Of a stretch of 61,113 nt of DNA, positions 7,449-59,951 are shown piece after piece. The notes under the pieces were generated by a model. It was not told the origin of the DNA. It did not search any database and saw nothing but the letters and a program-made list of their open reading frames with translations. Position 1 is the first letter of the stretch. Every line of letters starts with the position of its first letter. The DNA is taken from assembly GCA_021831595.1 (NCBI GenBank), contig JAKBMK010000025.1, positions 1-61,113 of the forward strand, in the 5' to 3' direction. This DNA comes from a bacterium. GTDB taxonomy: Bacteria; Patescibacteriota; Minisyncoccia; Phycocordibacterales; UBA9973. The position numbers were made by a program, and so were the translations under genes.

Positions 7449-9638
7449 CTAACCCACAGCAATATCATCTGTGTGGTCCATAGGTTTTTCAAGCAAATCT
7501 CTAGGTTTTGCGCCATTTTTAGGACCTACGACGCCTCTTTCTTCGAGCATATCTATGAGTTTGGCAGCACGAGCGTATCCGACGCCTAACTTTCTCTGTA
7601 GATATGAAGTCGAAGCTTGCTGATCGCGGATGACTATCTCGCGAGCTTCTTCGAAGAGATCATCATCTCCATCGCTTCCACCCTCTAGACTGTCACTGAA
7701 TAGTCCACCTCCACCTTTCTCTATACTTCCTGAGAGTTCTATTTGATCTGGAATCTCATCCATATAGGCATCTTTTAGATAAGAGACGACTCTCTTGACC
7801 TCTTCTTCTGATATGAAGGCGCTTTGCAATCTTTCTGGCTGTGGGGATTCGGCACTAGTGTAGAGCATGTCTCCGGCACCAAGCAATTTCTCGGCTCCTC
7901 CTTGGTCGAGAATTGTTCTGGAGTCTACTTGTGAGGATACTTGCAATGCGACACGAGTAGGAACATTCGCTTTGATGAGACCGGTAATGACGTTCACTGA
8001 TGGACGCTGGGTCGAGAGTATGAGGTGGATACCGACAGCACGAGACATCTGGGCGAGACGGACGATAGCACTTTCGAGTTCTCTTGGATAGGCTTGCATG
8101 ATATCGGCGAGCTCGTCGATGATGACGACAATGTAAGGCATTCTCTCGGCTTCACCATCTTTGCTCTTTGCGAGAACTTTCGTATGGTAGCTCTCTATGT
8201 TCTGTACAGACTCGGCTTGGAGTATGTCGTAGCGACGATCCATTTCCTTCGCTGCCCATTTGAGAGCGAGGATTGTCTTCTTTGGATCGGTGATGACGGG
8301 AGTGAGTAGATGAGGAATCTTGTTGTACAGAGTGAGCTCGACTCTCTTTGGGTCCACCATGATGAGCTTCATATCTTCTGGTCCATTTCTATAGAGGAGG
8401 GAAGCGATGATGGAGTGGATAGTGACGGACTTACCCGAGCCAGTTGTTCCGGCGATGAGGGCATGAGGCATCTTCGCAAGATTGCCGAAGACAGCCTTAC
8501 CAGAGAGACCACGGCCGAGGGCGACAGTGAGAGGCTTCGGTGAATTCTGGAATTTATCGTCAGCTAGAAGTGTGGCGAGTCCAACTGTGGACTTCACTTT
8601 GTTTGGTATCTCGATACCGACGAGCGACTTGCCAGGGATAGGAGCTTCGATACGGATAGGGTGGGCGGCGAGGGCGAGAGCGAGGTCATTTTGAAGTCCG
8701 ACAATGCGTGAAAGTTTAACCCCTTGGGCAGGCTTCAATGCATAGCGGGTGACAGTAGGACCGACGGTGACCTCATCCATTTCTACTGGTATGCCGAAGT
8801 TGAGGAGTGTGCGCTGGATGATGTTCGTATTGCCTTTCATGTCGCCGATGTTTGGCTTGCCTTTGTCTTTCTCGAGGAGGTCGAGTGGGGGAGGGACATA
8901 GTTCGTCTTGAACTTTTTTTGTGGTGACAACTTTTCTTCTTTTGGAGCTTTTACCGTCACTTCTTCATACTCCAATTCTTGCTCTTTTGGAGATATCTCT
9001 TTCTTCTTCTCGATGATCTCTTCTATCTCCTCTACTGGCATCTCGGAATTTGTGAATGGAGTCGTGACATCTCTACTTAGAAATTCTTTGAGTCTGCGCC
9101 AGAGTGAGAGTAAGTTTGGACGTTCGTTGAAGAGGACGAGTAGGGAAGCGATGAGGGCTGTGCCGAGTAGGAGGATGCCCCCGTAGAGACCGAAGAGTTT
9201 CAAGAATGGCCAAGCTATCATGCTGCCGAGTCTTCCACCGTAAGTGAGGATAGTGGAAGGACCAGAACCATTGCTTGCAAGGTCCATGATACCGAGAGTG
9301 GAGAGCAGTAGTGCGAGCGCCATGATGGCGTGAATTCTCGCAATCCAGAACTTTCCTTCACGCATAAAAGAAACACCGATGATACCTAAAATAATAGGTA
9401 GTAAGTAGTATCCAAAACCAAAGAATGAGCTCAATACTTTGTCTGTAAAATTTCCGACAATTCCTGCTAAATGAAAAATTGATAATAAAATTAAAAGCCC
9501 CAAAACGAGGATTCCGATACCCCAGAGACTCTCGGTAGTTTCTTCTTTTAGCTCTACTTTTTTGCGTCTATTTTTAGTAGATTTCTTGCCTCTTTTTGGT
9601 TCATCAAATTCCTCTTCTTCTATATCTTTTTTGTTCAT
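7449..9638 (-). CDS. ftsK: DNA translocase FtsK/SpoIIIE
   Basis: N-terminal TM domain, AGTTGSGKS, IIDELAD, LSTQRPSV and the gamma domain LQRKLGVGYARAAKLID. The ATG is at 9638. Confidence 0.97.
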   Translation of the reverse strand: MNKKDIEEEEFDEPKRGKKSTKNRRKKVELKEETTESLWGIGILVLGLLILLSIFHLAGIVGNFTDKVLSSFFGFGYYLLPIILGIIGVSFMREGKFWIARIHAIMALALLLSTLGIMDLASNGSGPSTILTYGGRLGSMIAWPFLKLFGLYGGILLLGTALIASLLVLFNERPNLLSLWRRLKEFLSRDVTTPFTNSEMPVEEIEEIIEKKKEISPKEQELEYEEVTVKAPKEEKLSPQKKFKTNYVPPPLDLLEKDKGKPNIGDMKGNTNIIQRTLLNFGIPVEMDEVTVGPTVTRYALKPAQGVKLSRIVGLQNDLALALAAHPIRIEAPIPGKSLVGIEIPNKVKSTVGLATLLADDKFQNSPKPLTVALGRGLSGKAVFGNLAKMPHALIAGTTGSGKSVTIHSIIASLLYRNGPEDMKLIMVDPKRVELTLYNKIPHLLTPVITDPKKTILALKWAAKEMDRRYDILQAESVQNIESYHTKVLAKSKDGEAERMPYIVVIIDELADIMQAYPRELESAIVRLAQMSRAVGIHLILSTQRPSVNVITGLIKANVPTRVALQVSSQVDSRTILDQGGAEKLLGAGDMLYTSAESPQPERLQSAFISEEEVKRVVSYLKDAYMDEIPDQIELSGSIEKGGGGLFSDSLEGGSDGDDDLFEEAREIVIRDQQASTSYLQRKLGVGYARAAKLIDMLEERGVVGPKNGAKPRDLLEKPMDHTDDIAVG

Positions 9639-9755
9639 CCCGTTAGAAGCAGGTCGCGATCTATTTGATAAGAAATACAACCCGCAAGCTTAAAATTATA
9701 AATAATAAAATCAAAAAATGTGTCCAGTTTATCGTGACCGCGGCTTCTAACGGGA
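9638..9755. mobile_element. ~118-bp MITE-like element with terminal inverted repeats at the ftsK start
   Basis: TCCCGTTAGAAGC..GGTCGCGAT (9638-9660) versus ATCGTGACC..GCTTCTAACGGGA (9731-9755). Confidence 0.75.
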
Positions 9756-19138: not shown

Positions 19139-20449
19139 ATGACAAGCAAAGAGAACAACAAGGAAATACTAAACGCGATTGAAGTCAAGAATATTTCAAA
19201 GAAGTTTACCATTCCGCACGACAAGGTTAGCACTCTGAAAGGAGCTTTTGTGAACCTTTTCAAAAAGAATAATTCCGAGATATTCTACGCCCTAAGCGAC
19301 GTCTCTTTTGAAATTAAAAAAGGAGAATTCTTTGGTATCATCGGGCGTAACGGCAGTGGCAAGTCCACACTGCTGAAGATCTTAGCCGGTATCTACAGGC
19401 CCAACAAGGGGGTAGTGAAGATAAACGGCCGGATCTCGCCATTCCTTGAGCTCGGCATCGGCTTTAATCCGGAACTTTCCGGACGCGACAACGTGTATCT
19501 AAACGCCACTGTCCTCGGACTGACCAAGAAGGAGATTGATAGGAAGTTTGACTCTATCGTTGCCTTCTCAGAGCTTGAGAGATTCATAGACCAAAAGCTC
19601 AAGAATTATTCTTCCGGTATGAACGTCCGCCTTGCCTTCTCTGTCGCCATCCATGCCAATCGTGATATACTCCTTATGGACGAAGTTCTCGCCGTCGGCG
19701 ATGCGAACTTCCAATCCAAATGTCTAGCCGAATTTGCTCACTACAAAGAAATGGGTAAGACCGTCGTACTCGTGACTCACGACATCAGCACAGTCCAGCG
19801 CTACTGCGACCGAGCAATGCTCGTACGCAATGGCCGGATAGAAATGATCGGCAACCCAGAAGAAGTCGGCAATGAGTACATTTACCAAAATATGTCCGAC
19901 GAAGAGAAGAGGATATATAGTGAGGAGAAAAGAAAAATAAACCAAGCCGAAGAAGATTTAGCCAGTCTTAAAGGGCAAGCACTTGAAAATGAATTAAAAA
20001 GAATTGAAGATGAAAAAATAAAATTAGAAGAAGAGAAAAAGAACAAAATAGCGGAAATTACCGAAGTAAAATTCTTAGATAAGGATGGCAAAGAAAAGAA
20101 TGTCTTTGAAACAGGGGAGGATATCACAATTAGAGTTTATTTTAAAAAACGTAAAAATATTGACAAATTAAACTTTGGTATTGCTCTTTTTAATCAAGAA
20201 AATAATTGTATATTTGGTACTAATACATTTATAAATAAAATAAATACCTCCCAAATGTTAAAAAATGGTTTTTTTAACATAAACTATAAAGGAGTATCAC
20301 TGAGAACAAATTCATACTACATTCAAGCTGGAATATGGGGTGATATAGTTACTGTCAATTATGACTTTTTATCAAAATCTAAAATATTTAAAGTGTTTAC
20401 GAAAGATCAGAACATAGGTATAATAAACATTAATCATAGCTGGAATTAA
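19139..20449 (+). CDS. wzt: Polysaccharide ABC transporter ATPase (Wzt) with C-terminal carbohydrate-binding-type domain
   Basis: GRNGSGKST, YSSGM, DEVLAVGD and a Wzt_C-like tail. Confidence 0.93.
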   Translation: MTSKENNKEILNAIEVKNISKKFTIPHDKVSTLKGAFVNLFKKNNSEIFYALSDVSFEIKKGEFFGIIGRNGSGKSTLLKILAGIYRPNKGVVKINGRISPFLELGIGFNPELSGRDNVYLNATVLGLTKKEIDRKFDSIVAFSELERFIDQKLKNYSSGMNVRLAFSVAIHANRDILLMDEVLAVGDANFQSKCLAEFAHYKEMGKTVVLVTHDISTVQRYCDRAMLVRNGRIEMIGNPEEVGNEYIYQNMSDEEKRIYSEEKRKINQAEEDLASLKGQALENELKRIEDEKIKLEEEKKNKIAEITEVKFLDKDGKEKNVFETGEDITIRVYFKKRKNIDKLNFGIALFNQENNCIFGTNTFINKINTSQMLKNGFFNINYKGVSLRTNSYYIQAGIWGDIVTVNYDFLSKSKIFKVFTKDQNIGIININHSWN

Positions 20450-24876: not shown

Positions 24877-24958
24877 TAGCAAGAATCGTTTTTGCTACAA
24901 CTTACTACAATTTTTGACATTTTGGGGGAGAAATGACTCGCAAGAACCGTTCTTGCGA
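24877..24958. repeat. REP family A copies upstream of RAYT-1
   Basis: Degenerate TAGCAAGAATCGTTTTTGCTA (24877-24897) and perfect TCGCAAGAACCGTTCTTGCGA (24938-24958). Confidence 0.85.
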
Positions 24959-24987
24959 AAGGAAAACGAGATTGATATAATTAAATT

Positions 24988-25674
24988 ATGTTGAGAAAAG
25001 ATCCATTTATTACTGGTGAGTACTATCATATATATAACAGAGGAATAGACAAAAGAAATATATTTAAACTAGAAAGAGATTATGAGAGATTCATGATGCT
25101 TTTGTATGTTTCTAATTCTACTAATGAAAATTCTTTACGATTAGATGATCTTTTAAATAAACAGCATAAAAGTTTTAAAGAAGTTTTGATTTTAGATAAA
25201 GGTAAGCCACTAGTTTCTATAGGTGCTTGGTGTCTTATGACCAACCATTTTCATTTATTAGTTAGGCAAGAGGTAGACGGAGGGATAACTAAATTTATGA
25301 GAAAAGTGGGGGTAGGGTATTCAATGTTTTTTAATATTAAATATCATAGGCAGGGAGCCTTGTTTGGGGGGCTCTTCAAATCTAAATTAATTGGTAAGAA
25401 TGATAATTATTTAAAAATGCTTTTGGCATATATTCATTTAAATTCACTTGAGATAAATTTCCCAGATTTAGAAAATAAAAAAGGGGAGTATAAAGAGGAT
25501 GAAATGAAAGAATTTTTGGATTCATATCGGTATTCTAGTTATAGGGATTATATGGGAATTAATAGAACAGAGAAGAGTATTTTAAACAGAGAATCTTTCC
25601 CGGAATATTTTCATACAGATCAATCCTTCATTGAATTTGTGGAGAATTTTTATCTTTATAAACAACAGCACTAA
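24988..25674 (+). CDS. REP-associated tyrosine transposase (RAYT-like Y1/HUH) #1
   Basis: YHIYNRG, WCLMTNHFHLL (HUH), YIHLN (catalytic Tyr) and YSSY. REPs flank it on both sides. Confidence 0.9.
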   Translation: MLRKDPFITGEYYHIYNRGIDKRNIFKLERDYERFMMLLYVSNSTNENSLRLDDLLNKQHKSFKEVLILDKGKPLVSIGAWCLMTNHFHLLVRQEVDGGITKFMRKVGVGYSMFFNIKYHRQGALFGGLFKSKLIGKNDNYLKMLLAYIHLNSLEINFPDLENKKGEYKEDEMKEFLDSYRYSSYRDYMGINRTEKSILNRESFPEYFHTDQSFIEFVENFYLYKQQH

Positions 25675-25890
25675 TCTTTCTAACCTTTCGCAAGAACCGT
25701 TCTTGCGACAAAAATCTTTCTAACCTTTCGCAAGAACCGTTCTTGCGACAAAGTTCTTGCGACAAATAAAAAGAAAAGGGCTCCTTAGGTAGTTAACCGT
25801 TCGGATCTCTCTTCGTATTGATATGGGTATTATATATCTTTGTGGTGCTACGGACTCGCAAGAACCGTTCTTGCGACAATCTTGCGACAA
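25673..25890. repeat. REP family A cluster downstream of RAYT-1
   Basis: A 40-bp tandem duplication (25673-25712 and 25713-25752) in which each unit contains TCGCAAGAACCGTTCTTGCGA, another copy at 25856-25876, and half copies. Confidence 0.9.
25768..25836 (-). ncRNA. Candidate small RNA, orphan copy of the NYN-linked motif
   Basis: Minus strand: TATAAT-N-ATATCAATACGAAGAGAGATCC...GGAGCCCTTTTCTTTTT, homologous to 29322-29391. Confidence 0.5.
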
Positions 25891-25940
25891 CAAAGGCAAG
25901 ACCTTTGCACGGACAGCAAATTGCAAAGGTCTTGCCTTTG
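25891..25940. repeat. REP doublet family B (left inverted copy)
   Basis: CAAAGG-CAAGA-CCTTTG ... CAAAGG-TCTTG-CCTTTG, the exact reverse complement of 27001-27050. Confidence 0.92.
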
Positions 25941-25946
25941 CGTCTA

Positions 25947-26906
25947 TTAAGTTTTTATTAGATAAGTTCTTCCTTTGAATATACGATACAGGAATATCAA
26001 GAAGTTGATGATGGATACTCCCACTACGTCCAAGAAAGATAAAGCCCAGCCGATGTAAGCAGGGAGGAAGAGCTTCTTGGTCTTGATAGACTTTTTGAAG
26101 TTTGATCTACTTGTTTTTGTATCTCCTCCTAAGAAATACATGATCCCAAGGCGGAAGTATCCTACGTGGACATAGTTGTATTTTGAATAAAGATCATAAT
26201 GCTTTTGGAAGACGTATTCGGCGTCTTTCACTTTTATCAGCTTGTCCTTTGATGCCTTTGTGATGTTATTCTCATGAAAATAATAGTTGAACAATGGCTC
26301 GTTTATAAAAGTTATATTGTAGCCAAGGCTCATGACCCGTATCCACATATCCCAATCCTCCGAATATTTCATTCGTTCGTCTCTCTTGCCAACAGCGTAG
26401 GCGACTTCGCTTTTCATTAGTACACTGCTGTTGCTGTATATTGGGTTCCTTAGCAGAATTTCTGGGATCGCGACTTTTTCATTGATAGGATTATAAATGC
26501 TAAAGCAGTTGCCTTTGTCATTTATCAAGTTAGCTCCGCAGGAGACAATGCAAAGCTTCTCGTCTTTGGATTCTTCAAAAGCTTTTAATTGTTTTGCCAG
26601 CTTCTCGGGTAGCCACTCGTCGTCGTGGTCTAAGAATGCGATGTACTGGCCCACGGCGCGCTCTACTCCTACATTTTTAGGAGTGGCGGGGCCACCGGAG
26701 TTTTGAGATGTTTGCAAGAGTTTGATCCGTGGATCTTGCCTGATGAATTCGCCGATCAATTCTGTCGTATTGTCAGTAGAGTGGTCGTCCACTATCAAGT
26801 ATTCCCAGTCTGTAAATGTTTGAGCGCGGACGCTCTCAACTGTCCTCTTTATGAAAAGGGAGCTGTTGTAAGTCGGTGTGATGATGGATACTTTAGGGTT
26901 GTTCAT
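25947..26906 (-). CDS. GT2 family glycosyltransferase
   Basis: VSIITPTYN, VDDHSTD, FLDHDDEW and SEDWDMW. Confidence 0.93.
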   Translation of the reverse strand: MNNPKVSIITPTYNSSLFIKRTVESVRAQTFTDWEYLIVDDHSTDNTTELIGEFIRQDPRIKLLQTSQNSGGPATPKNVGVERAVGQYIAFLDHDDEWLPEKLAKQLKAFEESKDEKLCIVSCGANLINDKGNCFSIYNPINEKVAIPEILLRNPIYSNSSVLMKSEVAYAVGKRDERMKYSEDWDMWIRVMSLGYNITFINEPLFNYYFHENNITKASKDKLIKVKDAEYVFQKHYDLYSKYNYVHVGYFRLGIMYFLGGDTKTSRSNFKKSIKTKKLFLPAYIGWALSFLDVVGVSIINFLIFLYRIFKGRTYLIKT

Positions 26907-27000
26907 TCTAGTGCGTTGTTGTTCTACTCATTCTTAATATTCTTTGGCAAACATATCAGCATTCTAGCATAAATAAAGGGCATACGGCAGGGTAAAGCCA

Positions 27001-27050
27001 CAAAGGCAAGACCTTTGCAATTTGCTGTCCGTGCAAAGGTCTTGCCTTTG
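27001..27050. repeat. REP doublet family B (right inverted copy)
   Basis: Exact 50-bp reverse complement of 25891-25940. Confidence 0.92.
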
Positions 27051-27082
27051 TGGGTTATTCTATTTGTATCAAAAGCTTGCCT

Positions 27083-28519: not shown

Positions 28520-28712
28520 CAAAGGTCTTGCCTTTGTCGATGCGCAAGGACGGTCCTTGCGATTAATGAAGCAGGGCAAAGCTTTGCTTTGCCCTGCCGG
28601 TCTCTGTATTAACTAATGTGGCATTTTTGTTAATACTATGTTTCTAGTGTAAACCAAAACGCCATGTTGGTTTACACTTTGTCGATGCGCAAGGACCGTC
28701 CTTGCGCATCGA
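28520..28712. repeat. Cluster of REP families B and C plus other palindromes
   Basis: B at 28520-28536, C at 28543-28561 and 28682-28712, and other hairpins at 28571-28597 and 28646-28678. Confidence 0.88.
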
Positions 28713-32058: not shown

Positions 32059-32082
32059 GATTATTTGATAGTATGGTTTTGT

Positions 32083-32225
32083 AGCCGTAGAAAGCAGGCA
32101 ATCTATGATTGTCCCGACGAAAGGAGGGGTGACATACGATAGAGGTCCTGCCGAGGTCGAAAACGATTTTTTTGATTATATCAAAAAATTGTCTACGCAA
32201 GCGGCCCATAAGGGCCTTTTTTATT
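32083..32225 (+). promoter_or_regulatory. L10 leader (rplJL autoregulatory RNA) with downstream terminator
   Basis: Promoter TTGACA (32047)/TG-TAGTAT, then CCGTAGAAAGCAGG...CCTGCCGAGG and GGCCC-ATAA-GGGCC-TTTTTT, upstream of rplJ. Confidence 0.7.
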
Positions 32226-32265
32226 AGAAATTAATGAAGCCAGCAGGCGATTATAATTTCTTATA

Positions 32266-32551
32266 ACCCTGTTAAATGATTTTAAATCTATGAAGAAGTT
32301 CTATTACATATATGTACTTCGTTCAGGTAAGGATAGTAATTTTTACGTTGGATATACAGAAGATTTAAAATCACGATTTAAGGAACATACAAGCGGTAAC
32401 GTTATCTCGACAAGAGAACGTCGGCCATTAGAAATAATTTATTCTGAGGCGTGTTTAAGTAAGAAAGATGCTCTTCACAGAGAAAAGTACTTAAAAACGT
32501 ATCACGGTAAATTATTTCTAAGGAATAGACTTAAATCGTATTTAACAGGGT
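32266..32551. mobile_element. TIR-bounded GIY-YIG element #1
   Basis: ACCCTGTTAAAT ... ATTTAACAGGGT, a perfect 12-bp IR tightly enclosing the gene. Confidence 0.75.
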
Positions 32552-32553
32552 AA
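32290..32553 (+). CDS. Small GIY-YIG nuclease #1
   Basis: YIYVL...FYVGYT..L..RFKEH...REKYLK. Confidence 0.92.
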   Translation: MKKFYYIYVLRSGKDSNFYVGYTEDLKSRFKEHTSGNVISTRERRPLEIIYSEACLSKKDALHREKYLKTYHGKLFLRNRLKSYLTG

Positions 32554-33081: not shown

Positions 33082-33090
33082 ATTTATGGA

Positions 33091-33212
33091 TCCCGTATGA
33101 AATCGCGGACGCGAATAATTCGGGAAACATTGTTATTATTAAAAAATTAATTTAAAAATGGGATTGTTGATTTAATAAATTATTTTAAGTCCGCGTCCTA
33201 TTTCATTCGGGA
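33091..33212. mobile_element. 122-bp MITE-like element at the rplL start codon
   Basis: TCCCGTATGAAAT-CGCGGAC ... GTCCGCG..ATTTCATTCGGGA, with ATGGA on both sides. Confidence 0.82.
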
Positions 33213-33604
33213 TGGAAGAAACAAAAGTAACAGTTCCTGCAAAATTCAAGGACATCGTTGCAACAATCGAAGCAATGTCAGTTATTGATTTACACGAACT
33301 AGTAAAAGTATTAGAAGAAAAGTTTGGAGTTTCAGCACAAGCTGCAGTAGCAGCAGCTCCAGCAGCAGGTGCAGGTGAAGCAGCAGAAGAGAAGAGTACA
33401 TTCACAGTTGAACTTACAGCTGCAGGTGAACAAAAGATTGCAGTTATGAAAGTTGTTAAAGAAGTTTTGGCTCTTGGACTCAAGGAAGCTAAAGACCTCG
33501 TTGACGGCGCACCATCAGTTCTTAAGGATGGTATGAAGAAGGAAGAAGCTGAAGATTTCAAGAAGAAAATCGAAGAAGCAGGTGGTAAAGTGACTTTGAA
33601 GTAA
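33212..33604 (+). CDS. rplL: 50S ribosomal protein L7/L12
   Basis: [19 protein letters not shown] and [14 protein letters not shown]. Confidence 0.98.
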
Positions 33605-33651
33605 TCTTCAAAGTCATCCTGACATCAATAGATGGAAGGGTTACTCATCGG

Positions 33652-33688
33652 AAAGAGCCCCGCAAGCGAAGCTTGCGGGGCTCTTTTT
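33652..33688 (+). terminator. Terminator after rplL
   Basis: AAAGAGCCCCGCAAGC-GAA-GCTTGCGGGGCTCTTTTT. Confidence 0.8.
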
Positions 33689-33716
33689 CTTGGCGTATAC
33701 TATAGGCGGATATGGA

Positions 33717-33991
33717 TCACGTATGAAATTCCTATGTTTTATACTTATGTACTACAGAGTAAAAAAAATGGAAGTTTGTATATCGGATATACGGGTGATT
33801 TACGAAAACGTTTTAAAGAACATAACGATAATAAGTCAACTTATACTCGGAACCGTGGACCATATGAAATTATTTATTACGAGTCGTGTCTAAACAAAGA
33901 TGACGCTCGGTCGAGAGAATTATATTTAAAAACAGGAATGGGAAGACGATATTTAAACGCACGTTTAAAACGTTTTCTATTTCATACGTGA
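33717..33991. mobile_element. TIR-bounded GIY-YIG element #2 at a start codon
   Basis: TCACGTATGAAAT ... ATTTCATACGTGA, a perfect 13-bp IR with ATGGA on both sides. Confidence 0.85.
33734..33991 (+). CDS. Small GIY-YIG nuclease #2
   Basis: MFYTYVLQS...LYIGYT.DL.KRFKEHN...RELYLKTG. Confidence 0.92.
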   Translation: MFYTYVLQSKKNGSLYIGYTGDLRKRFKEHNDNKSTYTRNRGPYEIIYYESCLNKDDARSRELYLKTGMGRRYLNARLKRFLFHT

Positions 33992-34608
33992 TGGAAACAC
34001 TAGCAAAACTTTTCGGGGGTGGGGCACGGGTCAGAATAATGCGCCTATTTTTACTAAACAACGAGACGTCTTTCGAGATCGAGGATGTCGTCAGTCGAAC
34101 CAGAGTGACGAAAGCTAATTCTCGTAAGGAGGTAAACGCTCTTCTGGCTATGAACTTTATAAAGCAGAAAATGGTAACTCATGAAGGTTCTCGTGGTGCC
34201 AAGAAGAAAGTTCCTACATACCAACTCAATCCACACTTCCCTTATATAAATTCTATTCGCGATTTACTCGTAGATCCATCGCTTCTCCTTCGCGAAGATT
34301 TGTCGGCACGATTCAAGCAAGTAGGGAAGATAAAGCTCATGATTGTCTCTGGAATATTCATAGGGAGCGACAAGAGTCGAGCAGATATACTAGTAGTAGG
34401 AGACAAGCTCAAGAAGAACGTCATACAGCAGATCATAAAGGGTCTGGAATCCGAGATAGGCAAAGAGCTCAATTATGTGGTTCTAGAATCGGATGAATTC
34501 AAATATAGAATAGATATGTATGACAAGCTCGTCTGCGACATCCTAGACTGGCCACATGAGAGGATTATAGACAACGGGCAGTTATCCACATATATATCTA
34601 AAAAATAA
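33991..34608 (+). CDS. HTH domain protein with nucleotidyltransferase-like C-terminus (putative regulator)
   Basis: LAKLFGGGARVRIMRLFLLN and SGIF...ADILVVGD...ESEIGKELNY. Confidence 0.65.
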   Translation: METLAKLFGGGARVRIMRLFLLNNETSFEIEDVVSRTRVTKANSRKEVNALLAMNFIKQKMVTHEGSRGAKKKVPTYQLNPHFPYINSIRDLLVDPSLLLREDLSARFKQVGKIKLMIVSGIFIGSDKSRADILVVGDKLKKNVIQQIIKGLESEIGKELNYVVLESDEFKYRIDMYDKLVCDILDWPHERIIDNGQLSTYISKK

Positions 34609-36177: not shown

Positions 36178-36480
36178 ATACGAATCACGATGTTAATGAA
36201 CAAAAATCACCAAGTAAAGCGGTTAAAGTAAGACCAATTGGTTTCGCTTTGTCCGCCAAAAGGCGGATTTTTCTTTTAAAGACATCGAGAATGATATTTG
36301 AAAACTGAATGCTGTTCCGACTCACTGTTATCCTTTATTTTAGAGGGTCTTTTGAATCGAGTCGGAAACAGAACACAACAATAATAGATGTATAAGCACA
36401 GAAGGAAGCGGTTCCTGAGAGTGTTTACATCGGATCATGTTTTGCCCTAGAGACAGAGCATGATCGTTTTTAAATTTCCT

Positions 36481-39945
<3,465 letters not shown>

Positions 39946-40057
39946 GGAAATTTGGAAATTATTATTGTTGTGTCAGCATTCAGTTTTCAGATATTATTTG
40001 TATCTGAGAAAGGTCGCCTTCGCGTAAAGCTACGGCGAACCGAAGTTGAAAATTTTG

Positions 40058-42776: not shown

Positions 42777-42822
42777 TTCTGCAAAGGTCTTGCCTTTGCG
42801 CAAAGGCAAGACCTTTGCAGAA
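42777..42822. repeat. Perfect 46-bp palindrome made of two family B REPs
   Basis: TTCTGCAAAGGTCTTGCCTTTGC|GCAAAGGCAAGACCTTTGCAGAA. Confidence 0.93.
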
Positions 42823-58290: not shown

Positions 58291-58323
58291 AAAACAGAGT
58301 AAGGCAAGACCTTACTCTGTTTT
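58291..58323. repeat. REP family D
   Basis: AAAACAGAGTAAGG-CAAGA-CCTTACTCTGTTTT. Confidence 0.92.
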
Positions 58324-59183
58324 TGTTTTGTAGTTTTGTATGAAAATACCTACAAATATAAACAATAGTCCAATAATAGAAGATATTAAAATGGTTTCGT
58401 GGAGCAGGAAATATATATAAACAAGAGAGAAGAATGGGGTTAAGAAAGCAATGTTTGCTATTTTTGCTGTATCTCCATATTTGAGAGCAAGAAACCATAA
58501 AAGAAAAGCTCCTCCACTCGTAAATATTCCAGTCCAAATAAGGCCTAGGATTTGCATCCCCTCAATTTTAGGAATAAAACTAAATGAAGTTACTGCTATC
58601 AATGTAAAAATAAAAGTAAATAAATAGTAAAAAAACATACTGGTCGTCTTGTCGTAATTTTGTCTTTTTCCTAGAACAGAGAATAATCCATATGACATAG
58701 CCGCTATAATTGCGAATATTACACCAATAGGTTTTTCAAAATGTAGTTGTTGCAGATTGCCTTGGGTTGCAATAATTATGACTCCTATAAAAGAAAAAAT
58801 AACAGCCAGTATTTTTTTATAAGTAAATTTTTCTCCCAATATTGGAATAGCAAATAAAACTATCATAATGGGCCATAAATAGTTAATAACGAAAGCTTCT
58901 TGAGCCTTTAGATAAGAGATGGCTATATATAAAAATAGATAATAAATAAAAACACCCACGAATCCCATATAAATAAAACGCCAATAATCTTTTAATCCAT
59001 AGGATTTTATTATCGAGATTTTTTCTGTATTAAAACAATTATGAATAAACTTAGTGATGCGAAAAATGAAGCGAAAAGTAAAATTTGTAGACTATTTAAA
59101 TTTTTTAATAACAGTTTTACTACTGCGGCAGTAGATCCCCATAAAAGGGTAGCTGACAGTGCATATATGTATGCTTTGTTCAT
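58312..59183 (-). pseudogene. EamA/DMT transporter split by a 1-nt frameshift
   Basis: N-part MNKAYIYALSATLLWGST (59183) and C-part MGFVG...INYLWP. They join in frame if one base is added to the T6 run at 59019-59024. Confidence 0.85.
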
Positions 59184-59217
59184 GATGTAGATTATAACAT
59201 AGAATGTTTTCAATATA

Positions 59218-59244
59218 ACAGAGTAAGGTCTTGCCTTACTCTGT
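59218..59244. repeat. REP family D (opposite orientation)
   Basis: ACAGAGTAAGG-TCTTG-CCTTACTCTGT. Confidence 0.92.
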
Positions 59245-59265
59245 CGGAGGAATATAATGTAATAT

Positions 59266-59931
59266 ATGTCTTTAAGAAAAGTTAATTTTGTAAAAGGAGA
59301 ATATTATCACATTTATAATCGCGGAAATAGTAAACAGAAAATATTTCATGATAAATATGATTATTTTCATTTTGTGAAATTAATGTTTATTTGCAACAAT
59401 ATAGATAATGTAAGAATTTTTAATGATGATCGGTATGGCATTAATGTATTTGATAGAGAGGTAGAGAATATTGTATCTATTGGAGCATATTGTTTAATGC
59501 CGAATCACTTTCATATATTAATTACAGAAAAAATGGAAAGTGGCATAAGTAAGTTTATGCAAAAATTATCAACTGCGTATTCTATGTATTACAATAAAAA
59601 ACATAATCACACGGGTGGATTATTTGAAGGGAAGTTTAAGTCTGTGCATATTGATGGAGATATTCAGATGAAATATTTGTTTTCGTATATTCATTTGAAT
59701 CCAATAAAACTAATATATAAAGATTGGAAAGAATTTGGTATCAAAGATAAAAAACAAGCATTAGATTATCTAGGGGAATATGATTATTCTAGTTATAAAG
59801 ATTTTATATTAAATGAAAGAATACAAAGTAAAATACTAAATATTAAAGATTTTCCCAATTATTTTCATATTAAAGAAAAGTTTCAGAAAGAGATAATTGA
59901 ATGGTTGTCTTTTAAAGACAAAACAGAGTAA
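59266..59931 (+). CDS. REP-associated tyrosine transposase (RAYT-like Y1/HUH) #2
   Basis: YHIYNRG, YCLMPNHFHIL, YIHLNP and YSSY. Inverted family D REPs flank it. Confidence 0.92.
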   Translation: MSLRKVNFVKGEYYHIYNRGNSKQKIFHDKYDYFHFVKLMFICNNIDNVRIFNDDRYGINVFDREVENIVSIGAYCLMPNHFHILITEKMESGISKFMQKLSTAYSMYYNKKHNHTGGLFEGKFKSVHIDGDIQMKYLFSYIHLNPIKLIYKDWKEFGIKDKKQALDYLGEYDYSSYKDFILNERIQSKILNIKDFPNYFHIKEKFQKEIIEWLSFKDKTE

Positions 59932-59951
59932 GGCAAGACCTTACTCTGTTT
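59921..59951. repeat. REP family D
   Basis: AAACAGAGTAAGG-CAAGA-CCTTACTCTGTTT, which contains the RAYT stop codon. Confidence 0.92.

Follow-up and report, generated by a model that had tools for sequence, protein, structure and literature searches.

The window analysed here is a 61,113-nucleotide stretch of an 807-kb Patescibacteriota genome (G000). Around rplL it contains two units that each carry a gene for a GIY-YIG nuclease, together with a gene-less element whose ends resemble those of one of them; a further member of the same family lies at the start of ftsK. The features concerned are the following:

9638–9755, minus strand: gene-less element (MITE) of the same family, 118 bp, at the start codon of ftsK (729 aa, minus strand)
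32264–32553, plus strand: second GIY-YIG unit, with an ORF at 32290–32553 (87 aa; 57.7 bits against Pfam PF01541 over 32290–32550)
33086–33090, plus strand: left copy of the rplL start, ATGGA, formed by the original A and the left TGGA copy; it opens the short ORF MDPV* (33086–33100)
33091–33212, plus strand: gene-less 122-bp element (MITE), with inverted ends at 33091–33103 and 33200–33212 and a second, imperfect stem
33212–33604, plus strand: rplL (L7/L12), its ATG remade from the terminal A of the MITE and the right TGGA copy (33213–33216)
33712–33726, plus strand: left copy of the host start, ATGGA (33712–33716), and the ORF MDHV*, which stops within the left inverted end
33717–33991, plus strand: full-length element, 275 bp, with perfect 13-bp inverted ends at 33717–33729 and 33979–33991
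33734–33991, plus strand: GIY-YIG nuclease ORF, 85 aa plus TGA (Pfam PF01541, E = 4e-16)
33991–34608, plus strand: host gene, 205 aa, with a weak Sta1-like HTH match; its ATG is the terminal A of the 275-bp unit plus TGGA

The original prediction held that a GIY-YIG gene tightly enclosed by perfect 13-bp inverted repeats, and a 122-bp gene-less unit with nearly the same ends lying exactly at the rplL start, form an autonomous/non-autonomous pair inserting at translation starts. Both units were found as described. In the 275-bp unit the GIY-YIG ORF is the sole content between the repeats, and the right inverted end encodes the last four codons of the nuclease and its stop. This TGA (33989–33991) has one A in common with the ATG of the next gene (33991; TGATG), and TGGAAACA lies directly 3′ of the unit. 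The ends of the 122-bp MITE differ from those of the 275-bp unit at one and two positions; its final A (33212) is the A of the rplL ATG, so that the element is followed by TGGAAGAA, the rplL start (33212; Pfam L12). When folded as RNA, its terminal stem closes (z = −2.87); the MITE at ftsK, the left flank of which is ATGG and not an exact duplication, folds with z = −4.95. The two left ATGs do open the four-codon ORFs MDHV* and MDPV*. Restoration of ATGGA by the last A of the element and a duplicated TGGA was borne out for both window units, but the duplication is not universal, since the left TGNN copy is absent in three of the 12 elements of the genome.

A 13-bp inverted repeat is not rare by itself, as the genome contains 160 inverted repeats of at least 12 bp within 40–1500 bp. 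The observation goes beyond chance because 12 elements in this genome recur with the same ends, all at start codons. The genome-wide scan that the original prediction had called for placed all 12 between the first and second bases of the start codon. In the window, the 11-mer TCMCGTAYGAA occurs three times, against 0.08 expected (100 shuffles, none of which reached three). Eleven of the copies are gene-less and a single one bears the nuclease; the 122-bp MITE and the copy at C8:17494-17612 share 80% identity, and the 13-bp inverted ends of the GIY-YIG unit are also found on the MITE at C33:4186-4273. Two inverted-repeat pairs whose arms are poor and which lack a flanking TG (C6:32503-32816 and C32:84154-84695) were left out of these counts. 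The Pfam L9 and DUF167 profiles align from residue 1–2 of proteins encoded downstream of the elements, and the targets include L7/L12, L9, PheT and FtsK, in line with the expectation that essential genes would be among the hosts.

The same placement was seen in five further whole genomes, where 28 of 32 elements lie likewise at start codons (two overlapping pairs with two-mismatch arms, L247 of 397 bp and L251 of 264 bp, were left out); gene-less copies number nine in genome G012, eight in G015 and six in G038. A census of public genomes, searched with the exact 14-mer of one end, yielded 58 paired elements, 49 of them shorter than 200 bp; almost all come from Patescibacteria MAGs. With each element oriented whichever way gave an ATG-initiated ORF, an ATG arises in 47 of the 58, and an ORF of at least 50 aa opens in 46; under this choice TG would be expected at either end in about one element in eight, and a long ORF far more rarely. 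As a control, TG follows seven of 64 unpaired (chance) matches. An exact 4-bp duplication, arranged as ATGNN/T...A/TGNN, accompanies nine of the 12 elements in the window's own genome and 37 of the 58 in the census, the remainder showing 0, 2, 3 or 5 nt; TGAA and TGGA together make up 34 of the 58 census duplications. A duplication length that varies in this way (0, 2, 3, 4 or 5 nt) is unlike that of a classical transposase, and was counted against the proposal made below. Also counted against it was the lack of near-identical copies, so that these genomes give no sign of very recent movement. GTG or TTG starts have been turned into ATG at several loci (L083, L076/L079 and L130). Among 39 reconstructed target sites, 12 have a −10-like hexamer at leaderless distance. 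Nevertheless, targeting of the transcription start sites of leaderless genes was rejected as a rule for the whole family: it does not cover other targets, which are preceded by Shine-Dalgarno-like leaders, are internal to operons (rplL) or overlap the stop of an upstream frame.

The empty alleles that the original prediction proposed to seek, with a single ATGGA, were found for both window elements. The empty site of the GIY-YIG unit is present in a contig of run X9 (six differences in 366 nt; ∼98–99% identity), while the site is occupied in G000 and in the X7 contigs, a presence/absence polymorphism of the kind used to recognise MITEs. In 18 relatives of the same genus, rplL has a single ATGGAAGAA, the same start and no element. 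The orthologue of the HTH gene in genome G047 has its start codon occupied by a different element, a MITE of 119 bp.

The GIY-YIG ORF is the sole ORF between the repeats in all full-length units, and related units of the same architecture lie at the start codons of other genes in other genomes. Each of the 17 intact full-length units has this ORF fitted exactly between its repeats, the right one encoding the last codons and stop. In eight of 18 full-length units it runs in frame from the captured host ATG to a TGA derived from the duplication, which overlaps the rebuilt host ATG. MITEs and full-length units have ∼25 nt in common on the left and ∼21 nt on the right (in the census and also in G015); this sharing of sequence beyond the inverted ends supports the predicted autonomous/non-autonomous pairing. 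A 7-bp hairpin adjoins the right repeat in 43 of 57 MITEs, versus 6% of shuffles (anchored hairpin count), and is built from 31 different stems; RNAalifold, applied to the last 40 nt of the 57 MITEs, returned a trivial 4-bp call only, because MAFFT had left the variable loops ungapped. The hairpin consists of two retained pieces of the nuclease ORF, ACGGAAACG and CGTTTCC, and the ORF was therefore there first. Judged by their sequence, the gene-less copies arose by internal deletion and have retained, next to the end nearest the gene, a hairpin whose stem covaries. They show the traits of MITEs: terminal inverted repeats, no coding capacity, copies at unrelated loci and a coding parent with the same ends.

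Coupling of the MITEs to the host gene through the left-ATG ORF was rejected as a general feature: among 42 MITEs, this ORF overlaps the rebuilt ATG in one and stops at −7 in five, lengths modulo 3 are distributed 21/11/10, and the short ORFs end at arbitrary places, which was counted against the proposal. Also rejected was the idea of one end type per genome matching the resident nuclease. Subfamilies coexist, with both GTTAGAG-type and GTAYG-type arms in genomes G012, G019 and G037, GTTAGAG only in G015 and G038, and GTAYG only in G000. That the coexisting subfamilies do not cleanly track one resident nuclease was likewise counted against the proposal.

The ORF at 33734–33988 scores 59.5 bits against PF01541, for which the cut-off is 22.6. 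Across 26 aligned homologues, residues Y5, Y16, R26, H30, Y48, E50, E62 and K66 do not vary, and the conserved Tyr, Arg, His and Glu are presumably catalytic. The protein is a bare catalytic domain of 85 aa without a DNA-binding domain, which was counted against the proposal. A single-sequence search against PDB chains matched UPF0213 (1zg2, E = 1.2e-8). When the profile of the 26 homologues was run against PDB sequences, it matched 1zg2 (1.8e-19), 1ywl (6.9e-16), SLX1 (5e-5 to 6e-4) and the catalytic domain of I-TevI (1mk0, E = 0.0045), with no match to UvrC at E ≤ 0.01. The score against TIGR01453 (group I intron GIY-YIG endonuclease) was 23.5 bits, below the 56.05 required, and covered profile positions 5–77 of 215. 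By these comparisons the nuclease belongs to the UPF0213/SLX1 branch of GIY-YIG proteins.

Several other explanations of these data have to be weighed. Stable stems that fold just upstream of start codons might be conserved leader hairpins or operators of the following genes rather than mobile DNA, a reservation that the original prediction itself had made. This did not hold, since different loci are involved and the orthologous sites either are empty or hold another subfamily; the empty alleles already contradict it, members of the same family stand ahead of unrelated genes across numerous contigs and phyla-level CPR lineages, there are target duplications and tandem stacks, and Rfam gives no match for either window element even at E up to 1. 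It can hardly be entertained any longer. A weightier alternative is that the elements have no true specificity for start codons: insertion would be loose, at T-N-N-A or TGRA, copies within genes would be lethal and intergenic ones would decay or be deleted, while those at start codons would persist because the terminal A makes them harmless and their imprecise loss kills the gene. In keeping with this, the few copies that lie off start codons have other duplications (TTTA twice, CTGA, TCAA, TTAG and TTGA), no conserved motif was found upstream of the cut in the 39 reconstructed sites, the copies are old (identity at most 91%, means 77–82%, no near-identical pair in the genomes compared) and 88% of the genome is coding. 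However, by a crude gene call, suitable sites outside genes outnumber those at called starts (454 versus 278 for ATGRA, 1417 versus 311 for NTGRA), yet 12 of 12 and 46 of 58 elements are at starts (binomial P = 9e-6 and 2e-10, respectively, for a null proportion of 0.38). Survival would also have to account for the fixed orientation of elements with symmetric ends: the exact 14-mer marks the gene-proximal arm alone in 35 elements, both arms in eight and the distal arm alone in two, and within-genome pairs align better in the same than in the opposite orientation in 35 of 36, 28 of 28 and 11 of 15 cases. It must further explain stacks of up to three tandem elements at one start codon, and the start codons (those of the DUF167, UPF0102, PheT, MurG-like and HTH genes) that were struck by different subfamilies in different genomes. 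We consider this alternative unlikely, though one to be taken seriously.

The remaining two concern the enzyme and the route of movement. The elements may be mobile without owing this to the GIY-YIG gene, which would then be a passenger or would have invaded later, as when a homing-endonuclease gene colonises a MITE. Cutting and joining would fall to a different enzyme, either a DDE or Y1 transposase of the bacterium itself or one brought by a phage or an episymbiotic host. The genome does encode DDE_Tnp_1 (four to five matches) and Y1_Tnp (five matches), the nuclease is present in only one of its 12 elements, and genome G029 has three paired MITEs and, in all but 386 bases of its sequence, no GIY-YIG match with the query used; these MITEs, and the resident DDE and Y1 genes, were counted against the proposal. 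Moreover, the GIY-YIG enzymes known to us are hydrolytic nucleases and we know of none that performs strand transfer or DNA joining. The original prediction had itself noted that standalone GIY-YIG proteins of ∼85 aa are not an established transposase class. Against a passenger stand the exact fit of the ORF between the repeats in every intact unit and the pieces of it retained as a hairpin in the MITEs. The DDE and Y1 genes, for their part, lie on contigs and at places that hold none of the family's ends, and the Y1 genes have separate, unrelated palindromes. Profile searches gave no match to rve or to the TnpB domain, and no DDE, DEDD, HUH, Ser or Tyr transposase was found between the family's ends, where the GIY-YIG ORF is alone. 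The arms are present in six of six genomes with a GIY-YIG match versus one of five without (Fisher P = 0.015, a weak indication, given that related genomes were compared and grouped partly by the elements themselves). A passenger role thus seems improbable. Homing-like copying would retain the nuclease but not cut-and-paste movement: the enzyme would break the start codon, and repair from an occupied site would proceed through ATGRA microhomology. Duplications of 0–5 nt and mismatched flanks do resemble repair products (left/right ATGGA/TGAA in L144 and ATGTC/TGGA in L241), the prevalence of TGAA and TGGA agrees with it, and the mobile GIY-YIG genes that we know of spread via break repair. Nonetheless, the duplications TGCG, TGTT, TGTA and TGAG agree with the second codon of the host gene itself and not with a donor's, a homology of 4–5 nt falls far short of the lengths that recombinational repair normally uses, and carry-over of donor flanks was not seen. 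We regard this route, too, as rather improbable.

The explanation we prefer, and to which we would give a probability of about 0.6, is that the elements are a family of miniature DNA transposons of CPR/Patescibacteria that move by insertion into start codons and rebuild the ATG. The autonomous form, ∼270–290 bp long, would consist of 12–16-bp inverted repeats (of the T-CCCGT...ACGGG-A type) around one ORF for an 80–95-aa GIY-YIG nuclease of the UPF0213/SLX1 branch, and the non-autonomous forms, ∼70–190 bp, would be internal deletions that keep both ends and the gene-proximal hairpin and multiply as such. Insertion would take place between nucleotides 1 and 2 of the start codon in a single orientation, usually with duplication of TGNN (range 0–5 nt). 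As its last base is A, the element would always leave ATG on the downstream side, even when the target was GTG or TTG, and the host gene would therefore keep a start codon, while the upstream start copy, along with the host promoter and ribosome-binding context, would be taken over by the element. This takeover could occur in two ways. In one, the host ATG itself would open the nuclease frame (M-N/D-P-V-R-D...), which ends at the duplication-made TGA overlapping the rebuilt ATG. In the other, which the 275-bp unit of the window exemplifies, the four-codon ORF stops in the left repeat, the nuclease ATG comes 7 nt further on, and one base is common to the nuclease stop and the host ATG. Ribosomes may then be passed on to the host gene by termination-reinitiation. 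We infer that the nuclease catalyses the movement by cutting the folded inverted repeats and the target; host repair or ligation would complete the move.

If this is correct in full, the family would be a new class of transposon, with an SLX1/UPF0213-type GIY-YIG nuclease as its sole protein. NTG starts would be actively recognised in a strand-specific manner and converted to ATG, the nuclease would be expressed from a captured host start with a stop made by the duplication, and essential CPR genes would be colonised free of cost. This fuller proposal is put forward tentatively, as somewhat short of an even bet. To our knowledge, no described transposase family uses this chemistry. In its predicted organisation, the family matches no described transposon type, and literature searches found no matching description of such elements. 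GIY-YIG-bearing insertions have been catalogued in CPR rRNA genes (PMC11270868), and these may belong to the same elements.

Likenesses to known systems are nevertheless evident. UPF0213/YhbQ-type proteins (1zg2, BH0048; 1ywl, EF2693) and SLX1 are of the same sequence family and size, and have the same bare GIY-YIG domain; the UPF0213 structures were deposited as hypothetical proteins, and SLX1 is a subunit of a eukaryotic repair nuclease. We know of no description of such a protein within a repeat-bounded mobile unit, and literature searches found none reported. GIY-YIG homing genes (I-TevI, phage Seg) are likewise selfish DNA with a sole protein whose placement keeps the host gene functional. 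However, the I-TevI catalytic domain is a weak match only, the present nuclease lacks a DNA-binding domain, and homing genes have, as far as we know, no inverted repeats, target duplication or gene-less derivatives, and are tied to a single cognate site, not spread over many unrelated genes. Bacterial MITEs and their parent insertion sequences share the terminal repeats, short duplication, multiple copies, derivation by deletion from a coding parent and co-transcription with neighbours. Examples are IS630/Tc1 elements at TA, IS5-type elements with 4-bp duplications, the Correia elements of Neisseria and the palindromic elements of Rickettsia. Their known parents encode DDE transposases, whereas the only ORF here is a nuclease of ∼85 aa in an autonomous unit under 300 bp, and we know of no start-codon targeting, ATG rebuilding or fixed orientation to the gene among them. 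IS200/IS605 and REP/RAYT elements are also very small, with ends defined by hairpins, strict orientation and insertion beside a short motif; they depend on HUH Y1 transposases, make no target duplication and are not known to target start codons, and none of the present repeats encloses a Y1 gene. Inteins and self-splicing introns follow the same strategy, that of a silent parasite in essential, highly expressed genes that uses the host's expression signals. Their silence rests on protein or RNA splicing, while that of the present elements would rest on rebuilding of the start in the DNA and, in full-length units, on the stop/start overlap; a search of Rfam detected no ribozyme family in either window element.

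Should the nuclease prove to be the mobility enzyme, it would represent a sixth chemistry of bacterial transposition, and would provide a biological role for the widespread UPF0213/YhbQ-type proteins, now without one. At under 300 bp, the element would rank among the smallest autonomous mobile elements, having no promoter or ribosome-binding site of its own and, in many copies, no start or stop codon of its own. Start-codon insertion that regenerates the ATG would be a new answer to the problem, met by introns and inteins, of parasitic life inside essential genes. Because the insertions displace or duplicate starts and give many CPR genes short upstream ORFs, automated annotation will miscall starts and report ‘hypothetical’ mini-genes. 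Able to locate start codons while sparing the gene, a nuclease/element pair of this kind could also become a tool for 5′-end tagging or regulation.

The second GIY-YIG unit of the window lies between a weak L10-leader match and rplJ, away from a start codon. Its 14-bp inverted ends, with one mismatch, are related to but distinct from those of the 275-bp unit, and it probably carries ∼40 nt of additional conserved flank on each side.

The window carries two members of a family of small inverted-repeat elements, in which full-length units bear a GIY-YIG ORF and gene-less copies are MITEs:

33717-33991: full-length unit, 275 bp, before an HTH-like host gene; perfect 13-bp inverted ends, with an 85-aa ORF as sole content
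33734-33991: GIY-YIG ORF, 85 aa (Pfam E = 4e-16)
33091-33212: MITE, 122 bp, in the rplL start; ends differ from those of the 275-bp unit at 1 and 2 positions

The 275-bp unit lies between ATGGA on its left and TGGA on its right, and its final A is at once the A of the nuclease TGA stop and the A of the downstream gene's ATG. The 122-bp unit is placed in the rplL start in the same way, and the left ATGs of the two units open MDHV and MDPV, each followed by a stop. All these features (ends, ATGGA flanks, rebuilt ATG and short ORFs) had been described in the original prediction, and all were present on reading the sequence. The 11-mer core of the ends occurs three times in the window, against 0.08 expected. 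Contigs of public runs X7 and X8 join position 33112, or 33115, to 33189; they have ends and a second stem as in the rplL MITE, with the interior different or absent, and are probably other copies from co-occurring strains.

When the source assembly (807 kb, 33 contigs, the window lying within contig C32) was searched for the ends, 12 elements of 79-275 bp were found on eight contigs, leaving out the poor-arm pairs C6:32503-32816 and C32:84154-84695. At each of the 12, terminal A and flanking TG together make the ATG that starts an ORF (58 to 729 aa), so that the proposed association with start codons extended to every element of the genome. The duplication proposed with it, ATGNN/T...A/TGNN, was seen in nine; the other three (on C8, at C28:14222 and at C32:9638) have no left copy. 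The genes entered encode L7/L12, L9, PheT, FtsK, a PriA-like protein, YceG/MltG, an Fe/Mn superoxide dismutase, DUF167, UPF0102, the HTH-like protein and two unnamed products. Since the L9 and DUF167 profile alignments begin at residue 1-2 of the downstream proteins, the rebuilt ATG is the true N-terminus. Only one of the 12 contains the nuclease gene; the MITE at C33:4186-4273 has exactly the 13-bp ends of that unit.

Of 41 related genomes, 34 contained nuclease homologues (36-68% identity), often more than one per genome, and several homologues were enclosed by related ends (TCCCGTTAGAG type) at the start codons of other genes. A census of public genomes (one per species) with the exact 14-mer of one TCCCGTTAGAG-type end variant gave at least 120 loci and at least 58 distinct paired elements; orientation was assigned by the ORF opened, gene calls were crude, and outside the source genome several target genes were named by reading their N-termini. 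Among the matches listed, nearly all named records with paired elements were Parcubacteria/Paceibacterota, Saccharibacteria or other CPR lineages. In these matches the right end made an ATG in 47 of 58 paired elements, opening an ORF of at least 50 aa in 46, while TG followed 7 of the 64 unpaired hits, mostly from other phyla, that served as chance control. An exact 4-bp duplication was found in 37/58, and ATGNN plus the duplication in 30/58, again among the matches listed; duplications of 0, 2, 3 and 5 nt also occur. In five further whole genomes, 28 of the 32 paired elements lay at ORF starts, two spurious pairs that overlapped having been set aside. The variants GTGGA/.../TGGA, cTTG/.../TGAA and cGTG/.../TGAG among the census matches listed show that GTG and TTG starts were entered between base 1 and base 2 and became ATG. 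Elements were also stacked, in one Wolfebacteria MAG as three different MITEs at a single start codon with TGAA between each:

L066, 5895-6300: three different MITEs in tandem at one start codon
L064, 4700-5013: full-length unit behind a remnant right end
L009: MITE, then 4 nt, then full-length unit

Different subfamilies had entered DUF167, UPF0102, PheT, a MurG-like gene and the HTH gene in different genomes. A TATAAT-like hexamer lay 6-8 nt before the ATG in 12 of 39 reconstructed target sites, including the empty HTH-gene allele; at that distance the genes concerned would be leaderless. In the filled HTH-gene alleles the hexamer is 4-5 nt further from the left ATG.

Alleles were compared using contigs of four public runs, which drop rare variants. 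In run X9, one contig (6 differences over 366 nt) has a single ATGGA between the upstream promoter-like sequence and the HTH gene, and is the empty site of the GIY-YIG unit. In the related genome G047, the start codon of the HTH-gene orthologue is occupied by a MITE of 119 bp that belongs to another subfamily. Across the X9, G047 and window alleles, this one start codon thus occurs in three states: vacant, MITE-bearing and carrying a full-length unit. At rplL, none of 29 genus relatives had a family end; the start read plain ATGGAAGAA after a short spacer in 18, and was not pinned by script in the other 11. Empty alleles had been anticipated at both loci, and both comparisons supplied them. 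Contigs of X7 contain both window elements at 98-99% identity, together with an additional copy of the rplL-type MITE in other flanks, the downstream one reading as the start of a MurG-like protein. The rplJ-rplL spacer before rplL is a hot spot in its own right: several relatives have unrelated inserts of 60-120 nt there (L033, L036, L043; L038, L039, L060; L042, L044), one kind with a GC-rich motif (ggtcctcgg...) and another made of ctagtcactag-like repeats.

The ends are symmetric and the elements themselves asymmetric. Among the matches listed, 45 start-codon elements had the exact 14-mer in the gene-proximal arm only (35), in both arms (8) or in the distal arm only (2). When elements within a genome were oriented by host gene, same-orientation alignment was better than opposite in 35/36, 28/28 and 11/15 pairs, a preference seen also in every clear subfamily of the source genome. 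Because C28 and C33 each carry opposite-strand elements within 10 kb of each other, orientation follows the gene and not the direction of replication. A 7-bp hairpin (at least 6/7 pairs) adjoins the gene-proximal repeat in 43 of 57 MITEs, against 6% in shuffles; its 31 different stem sequences reflect compensatory change. In full-length units the 3' arm of this hairpin plus the repeat is the 3' end of the nuclease ORF, and the 5' arm lies ~90 nt into the unit, within codons for a conserved D-L-R-K-R. As the left ~25 nt are also common to MITEs and the full-length unit of the same genome, MITEs are internal-deletion derivatives. The sharing of ends, left ~25 nt and hairpin agrees with the suggested autonomous/non-autonomous pairing. 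In G015 the MITE copies have a common MITE-specific stem that the full-length unit lacks, indicating that MITEs multiply as MITEs. In the predicted RNA fold the whole element closes into a terminal stem that stops a single base short of the start codon's UG (z = -2.9 and -5.0).

Could the location at start codons reflect selection alone? A crude gene call of the source genome (749 genes, 88% coding) counted 278 ATGRA sites at the starts it assigned, 454 in intergenic DNA and 5123 within genes; were insertion to occur at any ATGRA and only in-gene insertions purged, ~38% of survivors would lie at starts. The values observed were 12/12 (p = 9e-6) and, among the census matches listed, 46/58 (p = 2e-10). 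A purely selective origin, for which the age of the copies (77-91% identical) speaks, is considered unlikely. Fixed orientation, GTG/TTG conversion, stacking and recurrent hits favour a genuine preference of the insertions for start codons, specific for the strand; as the copies are old, longer retention at start codons probably adds to the bias. No upstream sequence motif common to the cut sites was found, and the few copies that are not at starts are flanked by other duplications.

Three coding arrangements were seen on aligning 18 full-length units, one of them (L136) degenerate. In eight (L003, L008, L211, L064, L099, L138, L144 and L152) the reading frame begins at the captured host ATG and crosses the left repeat without a stop; the protein starts M-N/D/I-P-V-R-D... 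and ends ...R-F-L-S-L-T-G; its TGA stop is formed by the duplication (TGAA or TGAT) and overlaps the rebuilt ATG as ATGA. The 278-bp variants (L006, L088 and L137, at TGTC, TGTT and TGGA sites) have their own ATG, and a TAA within the right repeat. The window unit represents the third: an ORF of 4 codons, opened by the host ATG, stops within the left repeat 7 nt ahead of the nuclease ATG, and the nuclease TGA shares its A with the host ATG. No full-length unit has room for a promoter of its own, and nuclease expression would depend on host signals. Full-length units may pass ribosomes to the host gene by termination-reinitiation, a coupling that does not hold generally for MITEs. Behind a MITE, the stem may bring upstream signals close, ribosomes on the short ORF may melt the stem, or processing might yield a leaderless mRNA.

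Residues Y5, Y16, R26, H30, Y48, E50, E62 and K66 of the nuclease are invariant in 26 homologues. By profile its nearest solved relatives are the UPF0213 proteins 1zg2 (1.8e-19) and 1ywl (6.9e-16), followed by SLX1 (5e-5) and, weakly, the I-TevI catalytic domain (4.5e-3); it scored below the cut-off of the homing-endonuclease model TIGR01453. SLX1 cuts branched and stem-loop DNA, an activity with which recognition of folded repeats by the nuclease would fit. The nuclease ORF is the sole ORF ever found between family ends. The source genome also encodes DDE_Tnp_1 (4-5) and Y1_Tnp (5) proteins, all at places without family ends, the Y1 genes having palindromes of their own; rve and TnpB-type domains had no match in it. 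Family arms occurred in 6/6 tested genomes with a nuclease match versus 1/5 without, a comparison among kin in which the nuclease-positive group was partly chosen by the element; the exception, G029, has three pairs (scanned except for 386 bases). Co-occurrence is thus weak support for the nuclease moving the elements.

Like MITEs and their parent insertion sequences, these elements have inverted ends, a duplication and a parent with deletion derivatives. To our knowledge, every insertion-sequence family is defined by a DDE, DEDD, HUH, serine or tyrosine transposase, which the present elements lack. The likeness to homing-endonuclease genes is limited to the enzyme family; IS200/IS605 and REP/RAYT elements are alike in small size, hairpins and orientation but differ in enzyme and duplication. 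A full-text literature search found no description of GIY-YIG-bounded repeats, MITEs in CPR or start-codon-rebuilding insertions. The nearest remark, in the available part of PMC11270868, concerns insertions in rRNA; in that of PMC12455944 a GIY-YIG protein is merely among transferred genes.

Other small GIY-YIG genes have different surroundings. The first in the window (32264-32553, flanks to 32592) is bounded by different inverted ends (14 bp) and does not occupy a start codon; it is preceded by a weak match to the L10 leader (32067-32231; 34.5 bits against a cut-off of 44) and followed by rplJ. In G004 (L045), a gene-less element with ends like these lies upstream of rplL, and its flanks are similar to the ~40 nt on either side of the window gene. 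This is a second family; its unit appears to comprise a left arm containing TATAAT and a right tail that extends to the ATG. Two further genes in the source genome (C18:19482-19730 and 19903-20124, within locus L264, C18:19000-20500) flank a tRNA-Gln (L264 744-818), with a tRNA-like fragment upstream of the first. Locus L012 (G039) has a GIY-YIG unit with unrelated 16-bp inverted ends, adjoining a sequence that resembles the conserved 5' region of RNase P RNA. This locus and the rRNA insertions reported in PMC11270868 suggest that relatives also enter structural RNA genes. Distant homologues (37-48% identity; L019, L020, L023, L026) lie within 15-17-bp inverted repeats of quite different sequence, and inverted repeats that enclose a small GIY-YIG ORF may be a theme more general than the present family.

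The 23S rRNA gene (window 36480-39947) spans 3468 nt against a 2925-position model and thus holds ~540 nt of insertion(s), in which no ORF of at least 90 aa was found. A REP/RAYT-like system also seems to be present in this CPR genome: its five Y1 transposase genes (IS200/IS605- or RAYT-like) have palindromes of 14-51 bp on their flanks, all built on a GCAAGACC-type core, and the palindrome also stands alone at other places.

Y1 genes and palindromes
Window: 24949-27053, 28537-28712, 42777-42822, 58294-59950
Other contigs: C20:3690-4418, C24:20317-21051, C31:40278-41037
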